From Escherichia phage phiG7, in the sequence record OQ791410.1: DNA of 60,274 bases; one strand, 5' to 3'. Under the pieces are notes generated by a model. That model saw only the letters and a program-made list of their open reading frames with translations. It searched no databases and had not been told where the DNA came from. Every line of letters begins with the position of its first letter. Position 1 is the stretch's first letter. Below, piece after piece: positions 51,913 through 56,470 of this stretch. A program made the translations under genes and the position numbers.

Positions 51913-54255
51913 ATGGAACTATTTCCCGCTGAAATTAAAGCTTTCCCACAATGGGCGGTCGCCGATGCAGATAAAAAGCCGCTTGTATGGGATAACGATA
52001 TCGGACGTTTGATGGCGGCGGACGTTACCGATCCGGATATGCTAATGACGTTTGAAGCTGCCAAAGGTTGCGCCGCTCATTTCAATAAACCTTACATCGG
52101 CTTCGTGCTTACTGCACAAGACCCGTTCACCTGCATCGACCTGGATGTGAAGAACGCAACCAACGAACCGGATCCCAAGAAGCACACAACGCCAGAACAG
52201 TTGCGCCGCTTCGAACAGATCATGACCGCGTTCGATACTTACACCGAAGTAAGTCGCTCAGGCTTGGGCGTCCACCTGTGGTTAAGAGGGAACATCGGTA
52301 AAGGTCGTCGACGTGATGGTGTCGAGGTTTATAGTCAGGAGCGTTTTATTATTTGCACGGGCAATCCTGTTTATAACAAACCAGTTGCCGAACGTAATCA
52401 TTACCTTACTATGCTTGTGAATGAAATTGATCTTCAGCGCAAGACATATGAAATTGAACTGGTAGAAAAAGATCCGGTAGAAGACGATGCGACTATTCAC
52501 CAGCGCGCACTTGAAGCGGACAACGGGGATAAGTATGCACGCCTATTCAATGGCGAATGGGTTGAAATGGGATTCCCTTCCCAGTCTGAAGCAGATCTTG
52601 CTCTTATTTCTATGTATGCATTTTACACAGAAAGTAATGAGCAATGCCGCCGTCTGTTCCGTTATAGTGCACTGGGCAAACGTGAGAAGGCTAATAAGAA
52701 CAATGTTCATATTGACCGTTGTTTGCGTATGTGTCGCGGTCGTATGGAGCGTGAGCGCATTGCTCAGGAAAACGTAGCGGCGCTGGCGCGGGATTACGCT
52801 GCTCGTATGCAAGCCGCACACAGTGCAATTCAGCAGGTAACGGAAATGCCTGTAATTGTCGAAACAACACAGGGGCAGACAGTAGTTGCGGAAAGTACAT
52901 CCATTGATGCAACAGCTATTGACTGGCCACCGGGACTCGCTGGGGAGCTTGCGAAGTACATCTACAAAGCATCCGTCCGACCAGTAAAAGAAATCTCTAT
53001 TGTGACCGCGCTCGGCTTTATGGCTGGGGTATGCGGGAAAGTATGGCAGATCCCGCAATCCGGTCTTAATGGCTATTTTGTCTTAATTGCTCGTTCTGGT
53101 GTTGGTAAAGAGACGTTGAACAGCGGGCTGTCTAATATAGTTAGCCAGATTCAGGACAAGTTTCCGCAGATTCATAGCTTTGTATCTTTTGATAGATGCG
53201 CTTCTGGATCTGCACTGCGTAAATCTTTTGCAGACAAACAATCTTTTATCAACCTGAATGGTGAGTTCGGTAAGATTATCAAAGCAATGGCAACGGCTCC
53301 AGCAGGCTCGCCGATGCAAAGTTTCAAGAATGATCTTACCGATGTTTATCAAAAGTCCGGTCAGATGTCTATTGTTGGTGGTATGTCTTATTCTGATAAG
53401 GCTAATAATACTGAAGCTCAACAAGGTGTGGCATATAGCATCATGGGTGAAACGACACCGGATACGTTCTTTGAAGCATTAACCCGAGAAATGATGGAGG
53501 ATGGATTCTTATCCCGTTTCCATGTTGTACGCTATGAAGGTGATCGACCACCTTTAAACAAAAATCAGCAGACTACAATGGATCAGCATTTGAAGGACAT
53601 GGTGTGCCATCTTGTTAACCACACTTTAGTAACCATGGCAAAGCATCAGAGTATTGAAGTACAGTTTAGCCCGGATGCGGAAGCATTATGCGATCAGTTT
53701 AACGATGAATGTGATCGCAATATTAACGCAACCAAAGACGAAGCGATCCGTCAGCCGTGGAACCGTGCTCACCTAAAGGTCTTGCGACTTTCTGCCTTGT
53801 TAGCTGTTGGTGAGAACTGGATCAATCCGGTGGTACAAACCTATCATGTGCAATGGGCTTTGGACTTCGTGCGTCATGGGCAGGATATTATTATGAAGGA
53901 ATGGCATAGCGGAGGCATTGGGACTAATGATGAAGCTCGTATCCGTACTATGTGTCAGGTCTGTGTGAATTATCTAACTAAAGACTGGGTGAAAGTTAAA
54001 CGTGTAGATTTGCGCAAAGAAGGTATTATCACGCGGGGTGATATTACTACGCGTCTTGCAAGTAAGTCCGCGTTTAAAAACTATCATCACGGATTATCCG
54101 CTGCAATCGAGTCTACAATCAAGGAGATGGTTGCTATGGGTGCACTTGTTCCGGTAACACGGGAGGAGACTATTAAACTGGGATTTACTGGGGCAGCTTG
54201 GCGCATTACGCAAGATGTTGAAGGAATTATGGCAAACTTAGGTGAAGAGGAATAA
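51913..54255 (+). CDS. primase-helicase (AEP-type prim-pol domain fused to P-loop helicase)
   Basis: Prim-pol motifs CIDLDV and SRSGLGVHLW; Walker A ARSGVGKET. Confidence 0.65.
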   Translation: MELFPAEIKAFPQWAVADADKKPLVWDNDIGRLMAADVTDPDMLMTFEAAKGCAAHFNKPYIGFVLTAQDPFTCIDLDVKNATNEPDPKKHTTPEQLRRFEQIMTAFDTYTEVSRSGLGVHLWLRGNIGKGRRRDGVEVYSQERFIICTGNPVYNKPVAERNHYLTMLVNEIDLQRKTYEIELVEKDPVEDDATIHQRALEADNGDKYARLFNGEWVEMGFPSQSEADLALISMYAFYTESNEQCRRLFRYSALGKREKANKNNVHIDRCLRMCRGRMERERIAQENVAALARDYAARMQAAHSAIQQVTEMPVIVETTQGQTVVAESTSIDATAIDWPPGLAGELAKYIYKASVRPVKEISIVTALGFMAGVCGKVWQIPQSGLNGYFVLIARSGVGKETLNSGLSNIVSQIQDKFPQIHSFVSFDRCASGSALRKSFADKQSFINLNGEFGKIIKAMATAPAGSPMQSFKNDLTDVYQKSGQMSIVGGMSYSDKANNTEAQQGVAYSIMGETTPDTFFEALTREMMEDGFLSRFHVVRYEGDRPPLNKNQQTTMDQHLKDMVCHLVNHTLVTMAKHQSIEVQFSPDAEALCDQFNDECDRNINATKDEAIRQPWNRAHLKVLRLSALLAVGENWINPVVQTYHVQWALDFVRHGQDIIMKEWHSGGIGTNDEARIRTMCQVCVNYLTKDWVKVKRVDLRKEGIITRGDITTRLASKSAFKNYHHGLSAAIESTIKEMVAMGALVPVTREETIKLGFTGAAWRITQDVEGIMANLGEEE

Positions 54256-55267: not shown

Positions 55268-55585
55268 GTGATGAGTATTGTAAACACTATCTGTGAAGCA
55301 ATTTATGCGGAGCTTATTCGTATTGAAACTAATCTGCATAAAGAAGGGCGAAAAGAAATCAAAAGAATTCTTGTAGATTTCCCAACGGCAATGGATATTC
55401 GAAGAGATGGTCATTTATACTATTGGGGTAGTGAATACATCGACGAATGTGATGGGGGGCATTGTATCCACATGGCTATTATGAATTACCCTATTGTTCC
55501 AACCGATCAAGTAACAGGTTTTGAGTTGATGTTAAATGATGGTACTTTAGCACCAAAAGCGGCAAAGGGAACCGCGCAAAATTGA
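55268..55585 (+). CDS. hypothetical protein
   Basis: RBS AAGGTGG; 105 aa. Confidence 0.4.
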   Translation: MMSIVNTICEAIYAELIRIETNLHKEGRKEIKRILVDFPTAMDIRRDGHLYYWGSEYIDECDGGHCIHMAIMNYPIVPTDQVTGFELMLNDGTLAPKAAKGTAQN

Positions 55586-55897
55586 AGCTTGCCATTCAAG
55601 ACTGCATCCTTTAAGATAACCACAGTTAACGAGGTTTAACAATTTAACAACATTAACTTAGTGAACGATGCTTAACTCAAGCCCTTGAAAGCGGTAGCTG
55701 TACCTCCTTACAGCAACTACTTTCGCTGGGCTTCCTGGAGCGGACAGGATAAACCCGCAACTTACTGAACGATGTGAACGATGTTTAACGCGACGGCGCC
55801 AGATGTACCAAACCGTCACCAGCCTTTGGCGAGGCTGTACAAGTAGGCCAGGATAGACGAAGACGGCAGTCAAAGTAAGCTATCCGACAATCAAGAG

Positions 55898-55930
55898 AGC
55901 CCAGGAATCCTTATGCCTGGGCTTTTTTGT
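55898..55930 (+). terminator. strong rho-independent terminator
   Basis: AGCCCAGG-10 nt loop-CCTGGGCT followed by TTTTTTGTT. Confidence 0.8.
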
Positions 55931-56002
55931 TCCTTGAGATCAACAGAACTTCAATATAAAATTCTTTATGAAGTGTTTTACATTAAAGTTATGGAGACAA
56001 AC

Positions 56003-56470
56003 ATGGCAGTAAATATTCGCGCTAAAGGTCAACGCGGTGAGCGGGAAGTATGCGATTTCTTTAATGCAATTTATGCCGAAATCTACGCAGAGCTGGGGAT
56101 GCAGTTACCGGAAAAACCTATTGCTCAGCGTAACCAGAATCAAAGTGCGGTCGGTGGTTGCGATATTAGCAATACATGCCACCATGCGGTTGAAGTAAAA
56201 AACCATGCTACGCCACAGGTGAACACATGGTGGAAGCAGACTGTTCAATCCGCTAAAGAGCTTGGCAGATATCCAGTTCTGATGTATAAAATAGAACGTA
56301 AAGGATGGAAGGTTGTTCTACCACTCAATCCAGTTGTCTTTAGCAATGGCGAGTGGCAGTGGTACGAAGTTAAAGATTCCATCCGCGCGGAGATTAGTCT
56401 TGATGACTACCGCATTATTTTTAAAGCGCACGCGAAACAATGGTTGATTGATCGCGGTTCAATCCAATAA
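56003..56470 (+). CDS. PD-(D/E)xK nuclease, Hjc/RecU-like Holliday junction resolvase candidate
   Basis: KGQRGEREV N-terminal motif and D...EVK catalytic motif (GGCDIS...AVEVKN). Confidence 0.45.
   Translation: MAVNIRAKGQRGEREVCDFFNAIYAEIYAELGMQLPEKPIAQRNQNQSAVGGCDISNTCHHAVEVKNHATPQVNTWWKQTVQSAKELGRYPVLMYKIERKGWKVVLPLNPVVFSNGEWQWYEVKDSIRAEISLDDYRIIFKAHAKQWLIDRGSIQ

Follow-up and report, generated by a model that had tools for sequence, protein, structure and literature searches.

What lies between positions 55586 and 55930 of the genome of Escherichia phage phiG7? The record OQ791410.1 (60,274 nucleotides, one strand; the whole of it is called the window below) is an essentially complete Seuratvirus genome of ~60 kb (Queuovirinae; CAjan/Seurat-like; relatives include the BASEL phages Bas21–25), and in an original prediction, made from the letters alone, this gap was put forward as ORF-free and as a candidate small RNA or regulatory locus. 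Within 55586–55930 the sole open reading frame (ORF) of at least 60 aa was indeed 55658..55873 on the minus strand (71 aa). By comparison with related genomes the locus was identified as a conserved, plus-strand-folded, modular non-coding element lying between promoter and terminator signals; conservation, the promoter, an ever-present terminator and compensatory changes all supported the predicted class. The element is very probably a stand-alone gene for a structured non-coding RNA of ~300 nt (~55624 to 55928, plus strand). Judged by its sequence, it is the representative of an unannotated phage non-coding RNA family, new, of a known general kind and of unusual modular build.

Conservation and absence of a coding frame

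The 901 bases around the locus were 95–99% identical to 30 GenBank phages. In 16 relatives the region itself was 97.4–100% identical to the window, flanking genes 77–98%, and it is the most conserved segment of the neighbourhood; in slur01 the upstream protein was 58.7% identical and the intergenic DNA 98.4%. The locus of Bas21 (GottfriedDienst) does not differ from that of the window (100% identity). One divergent ortholog was found, in Salmonella phage STP-SP5 (~80% identity).

The locus could be a small protein gene, the minus-strand ORF being annotated as a hypothetical protein, or sequence devoid of function; both are hardly credible. Coding sequences (CDS) are annotated at the locus in GenBank (53 aa, minus strand, in records of the BASEL collection; 29 aa, plus strand, in Dru_SM1), against which it was found that the minus-strand ORF is cut to 32–35 aa in three relatives (L009, L144 and L146), frameshifted in slur01 and replaced by unrelated sequence in STP-SP5; short plus-strand frames were not kept between the window and STP-SP5. 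Insertions and deletions among relatives are 1, 2, 8, 9 or ~100 nt long and do not keep to multiples of three, and the region is more conserved than real genes nearby. A conserved protein-coding frame, one of two findings named beforehand as overturning the prediction, was thereby excluded.

Transcription signals

The promoter (Table 1) was identical in all close relatives; its counterpart in STP-SP5, TTGACA-17-TAATAT, is nearer to the consensus than that of the window. The strong terminator of the original prediction was recovered, with a small correction of its coordinates from 55898..55930 to a stem 55892–55905/55916–55929; it had been passed over by the pattern scanner because its loop of 10 nt exceeds the scanner limit of 8. 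It is kept in STP-SP5, a different terminator stands at the equivalent place in VogelGryff-type phages, and one is present in all variants, those with a replaced 3' part included. Promoter, terminator with U tail, absence of a conserved ORF and locally highest conservation, sequence marks of a stand-alone bacterial-type small RNA (sRNA) gene, were found. Host RNA polymerase would start at the sigma-70-type promoter and stop at the strong intrinsic terminator, releasing an RNA of ~300 nt. The directly preceding gene ends at 55585, and no terminator was found by pattern scan between its end and the locus; read-through transcripts from this gene would therefore also carry the region as a 3' untranslated region (UTR).

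Fold of the RNA and covariation

Folding of the region, a check proposed with the original prediction, was better than in 100/100 dinucleotide shuffles (z = −4.5). Among ten distinct orthologs 99.1% of the predicted pair cells were standard pairs; compensatory changes were seen in 7/85 predicted pairs, compared with 1.2 ± 0.9 in shuffles (0/500 reached seven) and 0–2 in slid controls. Six of the seven fall within hairpin P1; the pair change C55684U + G55728A is shared by L009 and L149, which are close to the window, and also by the divergent STP-SP5. One-sided changes yield G-U pairs on the plus strand only, and together with the compensatory changes they point to a folded plus-strand RNA.

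The apical loop of P1, ACCUCCUUA (55702–55710), does not vary and is enclosed by a covarying stem; in the ensemble it is largely unpaired (0.69). It is identical to the 3' end of 16S rRNA, i.e., to the anti-Shine-Dalgarno sequence; ACCUCCUUAC agrees exactly with the final nine bases of 16S rRNA followed by the first base of the spacer (E. coli K-12 rrsH used for the check). The short GCTGTA/TACAGC hairpin noted in the original prediction is real and forms the tip of a much longer helix.

The pseudoknot following P1 is built of S1 UCCUG/CAGGA, L1 GA, S2 GCGG/CCGC, L2 A and L3 UAAAC; 97.8% of its cells were paired and 4/9 pairs showed compensatory changes (orthologs and the paralogous L146 unit; five sequences only), the change of stem S2 in STP-SP5 being recovered in the whole-locus pair analysis as well. 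In module 2, GACGGCGCCAGATGTACCAAACCGTCA (55792–55818) is invariant, STP-SP5 included; pairing of P4 is kept through two one-sided changes to G-U. P3, a predicted helix, and the terminator stem showed no variation among orthologs. In relatives carrying an HNH gene the 3' domain consists of ~50% diverged sequence with a hairpin at the equivalent place (VogelGryff-type: AAAUAAGG/CCUUAUUU); its helix register differs, which is conservation of structure rather than strict covariation. Long-range helices proposed by RNAalifold were rejected as unsupported, because the junction that they use is rewritten in L009.

Table 1: Features of the locus and its immediate surroundings (positions refer to the window).
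Feature	Position	Strand	Remarks
Sigma-70-type promoter TTGCCA-17-TAAGAT	55589..55617	+	pattern scan; predicted start ~55624
5' leader with six T[T/G]AAC pentamers, period 8–10 nt	55624..55679	+	pentamers at 55626, 55636, 55644, 55653, 55662 (in TGAACGATG), 55672
Hairpin P1, module 1	55680..55732	+	20 pairs, 6 compensatory; dG −26.4 (window), −20.3 (STP-SP5)
26-nt H-type pseudoknot closing module 1	55733..55758	+	directly after P1; both stems covary
Inter-module junction: AACUUA, TGAACGATG twice, TTTAAC	55759..55789	+	9-mer copy number differs between phages
Module 2 core: predicted helices P3 (55792–96/55813–17, loop CGCCAGAUGUACCAAA) and P4 (55820–26/55831–37)	55792..55837	+	
3' domain: hairpin P5 (55851–56/55880–85) and inner hairpin	55843..55891	+	swapped in HNH-carrying relatives
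Intrinsic terminator: 14-bp stem, GC core GAGCCCAGG/CCUGGGCUU, six U	55892..55930	+	dG −21.9 kcal/mol
Promoter-like site of the nuclease gene, TTGAGA-17-TAAAAT	55934..55962	+	pattern scan; separate from the locus promoter

Repeats and modular architecture

Periodic TTAAC repeats had been predicted and were confirmed: the motif starts at five of the leader positions (55626, 55636, 55644, 55653, 55672) and again at 55785. Five copies in 55 nt make the densest cluster of the genome (~0.009 such clusters expected genome-wide). With the pattern T[T/G/A]AAC (plus strand, at least 4 per 70 nt) two clusters alone were found in 60 kb, 55626–55672 and 55750–55785, the former holding six copies at spacings of 10, 8, 9, 9 and 10. 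The predicted number of three TGAACGATG copies was correct and holds for the whole window (55662, 55766, 55775); the coordinates given for them were one base low. STP-SP5 has one leader repeat fewer (an alignment gap of 8 columns), its pentamers still being spaced by 8–10 nt; Dru_SM1 has three copies of TGAACGATG at the junction instead of two, and 55760–55767 is the most variable stretch of the locus.

The original prediction had not noticed that a unit of ~105 nt is duplicated in tandem within the region. Three families of repeats reappear after 104–105 nt, and the units 55655–55758 and 55759–55872 are paralogous (alignment z = 6.8 vs shuffles). A module consists of a T[T/G]AAC(GATG) repeat tract and a variable hairpin domain, to which internal modules add a pseudoknot. 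Alignment of the units places their variable hairpin sequences at equivalent positions; the module-1 loop ACCUCCUUA stands opposite ACCAAACCGUCA of module 2, which lies inside the longest invariant run.

The relative L146 (metagenomic contig ERZ1026901 NODE-154, 61 kb) carries an extra unit of ~108 nt (1131–1238) between modules 1 and 2 and hence three modules. The unit begins with TTAACGATG, has hairpins of its own and ends with CCAG-GA-CUGU-A-CUGG-AUAAAC-ACAG, in which the pseudoknot recurs with other stem sequences. The unit is a paralog of module 1 (z = 5.0), and no match to it was found in GenBank phages. Pattern scans of IMG/VR, a protein-based scan and a metagenome scan returned near-identical copies and L146 only; a search for homologs with a degenerate 15-base pattern gave only noise.

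In VogelGryff (L003, 3145–3784), Dru_SM1 (L006, 2639–3278) and L142 a gene for an HNH homing endonuclease was observed between the RNA locus and the nuclease gene that follows it. In these carriers homology stops at 55842: beyond this point other sequences take the place of the RNA's 3' domain and of the terminator, and the nuclease gene is a different allele (61% aa identity); the recombination junction consequently lies inside the RNA gene.

Corresponding sites in other genera

In four lineages of other genera an unannotated arrangement of promoter, structured non-coding stretch and terminator was found between the primase region and the PD-(D/E)XK gene. The region of Providencia phage PSTCR4 (L017, 2945–3330) folds with z = −8.0; that of Vibrio phage 83AMN (L016, 3020–3495) folds with z = −2.8 and contains a 9-bp stem with the loop CCUCCCUGA. 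Nonagvirus has a compact unit of ~115 nt (phage 9g, L014, 3330–3495; L015, 3340–3488; L019, 3340–3480), in which a hairpin with the loop ACCCCUUUU is common to 9g and Ec1-ASingh, the stems differing (z = 5.4); the loop GUAG-UUA-ACCCCUUUUC is conserved between 9g and Ec1-ASingh/Kpn2-P2, likewise on differing stems.

Cross-genus local alignment was not significant, except within Nonagvirus and for a marginal pair of collinear matches with PSTCR4, and the units are therefore treated as positional analogues. C/U-rich apical loops recur in the syntenic units; this is only suggestive, because short C/U motifs are common.

Further observations at these sites: in Kpn2-P2 an annotated CDS overlaps the start of the Nonagvirus unit; in phage 9g (L014, 3040–3315) an apparent unannotated ORF of ~91 aa, ATGAATGTAACTG...TGGTATGA, fills most of the gap upstream of the nuclease gene; in Pantoea phage Vid5 (L018, 3197–3284) a tRNA-Ser(GCU) gene takes the place of the non-coding RNA, and this stretch between genes is apparently a hotspot for RNA genes.

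Genome setting and neighbouring genes

The locus sits in a plus-strand block of replication and nucleotide-metabolism genes. Upstream of it lie an AEP-primase/DUF3987 gene (51913–54255), this primase-helicase gene being 1.3 kb away, and then a few small genes of unknown function. The 780-aa product, annotated as DNA primase, combines an AEP prim-pol domain (NrS-1-like helix bundle) with DUF3987. Among solved structures it is best matched by PDB 7OLA, which was deposited as "DNA primase". We take 7OLA to be the primase-replicase of a staphylococcal pathogenicity island (SaPI), in which the origin would adjoin the primase-replicase gene; the phage protein is a candidate self-loading initiator.

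The downstream gene ends at 56470 and, by the annotations of relatives, truly starts at 56003, 70 nt past the terminator; the start at 55913 given by the ORF finder crosses the terminator. Its product is labelled "RusA-like Holliday junction resolvase" in GenBank and PHROGs; it matches Pfam PF24608, a phage PD-(D/E)XK endonuclease, and the RusA label is for this reason probably wrong. An ORF of 100 aa with a weak match to phrog_5486 was seen between the terminator and the PD-(D/E)XK gene in WildeMaa (L002, 2234–2536), SHIN8, Greed and STP-SP5 (L005, 2495–2797); it is absent from the window.

Comparison with known RNAs and sites

A covariance-model scan had been suggested with the original prediction, and no family was matched: Rfam 15 at gathering thresholds gave no match in the whole window, and at E ≤ 10 the segment 55400–56100 gave four chance-level matches only, the best being the terminator itself; L146 was likewise without a family. 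ARAGORN found no tRNA or tmRNA in the window or the orthologous loci, the tRNA-Ser of Vid5 being the sole syntenic case. A literature search on sRNAs of Seuratvirus, Queuovirinae, CAjan and Nonagvirus yielded nothing relevant, nor any transcriptome data for Seuratvirus.

sRNAs that mask the Shine-Dalgarno (SD) sequence by C/U-rich loops are known from S. aureus (RNAIII, RsaE), Listeria (LhrC1–5) and streptococci (csRNAs). Like them, the phiG7 RNA has C/U-rich hairpin loops complementary to the SD sequence and an intrinsic terminator at its end, and its paralogous units recall LhrC and the csRNAs, which exist in several paralogous copies, some of these in tandem; unlike them, it belongs to a lytic coliphage, bears no relation in sequence or Rfam, and has its modules fused in one transcript of ~300 nt with different loops, repeat tracts and pseudoknots. 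RNA C and RNA D of phage T4 are stable small RNAs of unknown function, located beside tRNA genes and processed from tRNA precursors. The likeness consists in abundant-looking structured non-tRNA RNA genes of the early/middle region and in the tRNA-Ser of Vid5 at the syntenic site; homology is lacking, and the phiG7 locus has a promoter and a terminator of its own. Compact H-type pseudoknots occur as luteovirus frameshift pseudoknots and as preQ1-I riboswitch aptamers; shared with these are S1 of 4–5 bp, L1 of 2 nt, S2 of 4 bp, a 1-nt junction and an A-rich L3, whereas those of phiG7 stand outside a coding frame, match no preQ1 family and are repeated at module ends.

Several candidate identities were rejected. 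A preQ1-I riboswitch has the H-type topology in its favour, but L2 is a single A without the ligand-pairing C, and no model matched at E ≤ 10. ToxI-like RNAs of type III toxin-antitoxin systems consist of near-identical tandem repeats of ~34–45 nt, with a terminator and a toxin gene of ToxN/AbiQ type behind them; here the units are ~105 nt long and strongly diverged, the 9-mers are too short, and the next gene is the PF24608 nuclease. A boxA/nut antitermination site was considered, since TTTAACAATTTA(A)CA matches the rrnH leader of E. coli K-12 around boxA (14/15, p ~0.017, statistically weak); the core GCUCUU(U)A is absent, being GAGGUU in the window and GAGUCU in STP-SP5, so that only the 3' half and the spacer match. 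A CsrB/RsmZ-type sponge for CsrA is unlikely, GGA being unenriched (5 vs 4.9 expected) and the GGA of the pseudoknot loop polymorphic (GGG in 9/16 other sequences).

Mimicry of CRISPR repeats of types I-E and I-F was examined and the similarity was marginal: for type I-E, AGCGG---GGATAAACC gave p ~0.04 before correction for multiple testing, the Cas6e stem CCCCGC/GCGGGG is absent, and this candidate too was rejected. GGAUAAACC is common to the locus and the type I-E repeat; most relatives have G for its A. Phage RNAs that mimic CRISPR repeats have been described as Racr (PMC10651486) and as Cracr arrays (bioRxiv 10.1101/2024.10.29.618823). Like these, the phiG7 locus is a short array of non-coding units within a phage genome, and it has GGAUAAACC in common with them, a sequence that is also part of the type I-E 5' handle; the locus differs in its marginal similarity, the missing Cas6e stem, putative "spacers" that are structured and covarying, and the handle A replaced by G in most relatives.

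Possible functions

For the RNA itself, the tentative proposal, about which we are somewhat more doubtful than confident, is that of a trans-acting riboregulator working by means of its exposed and invariant loops. The module-1 loop ACCUCCUUA would pair with SD regions (UAAGGAGGU) and block initiation of translation on target mRNAs; module 2 would expose another invariant loop, CGCCAGAUGUACCAAA. Cleavage may occur at the variable A/U-rich junctions, with the pseudoknots perhaps shielding the 3' ends of the units set free. A cross-genus comparison of seeds and targets with 9g gave nothing that stood out, and a similarity search of E. coli with the locus found no match, such a search being powerless for short pairings. 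No target having been found, it is the anatomy of the RNA that suggests action through the loops. More speculative, and rather unlikely, is an expandable cassette array, in which each ~105-nt module would unite three parts: repeats serving a partner protein or processing, a "payload" hairpin that can be exchanged and has its own targeting loop, and a pseudoknot cap that stabilises the unit once released; phages would gain, lose and swap modules (L146, HNH variants), and one payload would copy the anti-SD sequence to compete for or mask ribosome-binding sites.

Several results weigh against the stand-alone, trans-acting RNA. The identity with 16S rRNA extends over 9–10 nt only, and the local alignment was not significant (p = 0.28). 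The longest complementarity to the phage genome, 12 nt, is at chance level; no extended match to the anti-SD loop was found in the phage, and no ribosome-binding site stood out in phiG7 or 9g. Conservation of nearly the full 300 nt and periodic repeats are atypical of seed-driven sRNAs, and protein binding or a role as DNA fits them at least as well. Homology to the RNAs of the other genera is statistically not demonstrable. Finally, with upstream genes lacking a terminator of their own, the RNA may double as a 3' UTR or be one instead.

The main rival reading, serious if doubtful, is that the locus serves, wholly or in part, as a replication origin or as a region for replication in cis, T[T/G]AAC(GATG) iterons being bound by the primase-helicase and a promoter-driven structured transcript activating or priming initiation. 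Transcript-dependent origins are known from the ori transcript of lactococcal phage c2 and from ColE1 RNA II. A direct-repeat cluster near a probable initiator gene, as expected of iteron origins, was found: the genome has no T[T/G/A]AAC clusters besides the two of this locus, which are ~100 bp apart and have a period of 8–10 bp that is preserved through unit-wise gain and loss of repeats, in a replication module and downstream of the gene for the 7OLA relative; the non-coding regions of PSTCR4 and 83AMN follow the primase gene almost directly and have GT[T/G/A]AA[A/C] clusters, and full-length conservation suits a DNA element. In phage P4 the ori and crr are bound by the alpha primase-helicase; the iteron of alpha, TGTTCACC (on the other strand GGTGAACA), is similar to GTGAAC, and crr consists of two direct repeats of ~120 bp. 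With the c2, P4 and SaPI origins the locus shares a non-coding region near an initiator gene, clusters of short direct repeats, direct repeats of ~100 bp and a (here predicted) promoter-driven non-coding transcript; it differs in that the phiG7 evidence, known from sequence alone, favours folding of the RNA and that an AT-rich unwinding element is missing between the repeat clusters (GC ~50%). What speaks for RNA instead of DNA is that compensatory changes alter base identity and that G-U pairs occur on one strand; free RNAs more typically have a strong terminator immediately behind them, as here, and the ~115-nt unit of Nonagvirus is sRNA-like. The mean period of 9.2 bp does not hold one face of B-DNA. 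The GC skew flips at ~17 kb and ~47.5 kb, the same points at which gene orientation flips; it thus mirrors the direction of transcription, carries no independent origin signal and does not turn at 55.6 kb. An origin transcript with a required fold would fit both readings, which do not exclude each other.

The third option, a serious rival too but judged unlikely, is a decoy or sponge RNA that titrates a host or phage RNA-binding protein, or a defence nuclease, by its repeated single-stranded motifs (UUAAC, UGAACGAUG) or by its rRNA-like loop. It would account for short motifs in 6 and 3 copies, predicted to be partly single-stranded and of phage-dependent copy number, for conservation of the whole RNA and not of a seed alone, and for the modular architecture; yet no known binding motif fits. 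GGA is not enriched, the type I-E similarity is marginal and comes without a Cas6e hairpin, and in the boxA-like TTTAACAATTTA the core GCUCUU is missing.

Purely cis roles are unlikely, as is coding. A structured 3' UTR with terminator of the upstream small-gene operon, a leader, attenuator or antiterminator governing read-through to the nuclease/dUTPase genes, or riboswitch-like pseudoknots would be consistent with the missing terminator after 55585 and with a terminator 70 nt upstream of the next gene, and the topology of the 26-nt pseudoknot is that of preQ1-I aptamers. PMC6884629 describes the phage family as making 7-deazaguanine DNA. Such an element is nevertheless quite improbable: the region and the downstream gene have separate promoters, the number and content of modules vary, the 3' part can be swapped, and the preQ1 models and the L2 loop gave the negative outcome already described. 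The base of P1 resembles the terminator stem, a likeness that STP-SP5 does not have; no alternative pairing is therefore conserved, and riboswitch and attenuator were rejected.

Biological meaning

Seuratvirus and related Queuovirinae are widely isolated coliphages (Bas21–25 of the BASEL collection among them) with genomes annotated for proteins only; GenBank records leave the locus blank or place a spurious minus-strand ORF there. If the RNA is a riboregulator, exchangeable pseudoknot-capped hairpins and a loop copying the anti-SD sequence would make an unusual riboregulator design; if the locus is instead the origin, the replication origin of this phage group would have been located. Its conservation, higher than that of the neighbouring genes compared, points to an important function, which would lie in the takeover of host or phage translation or in replication.

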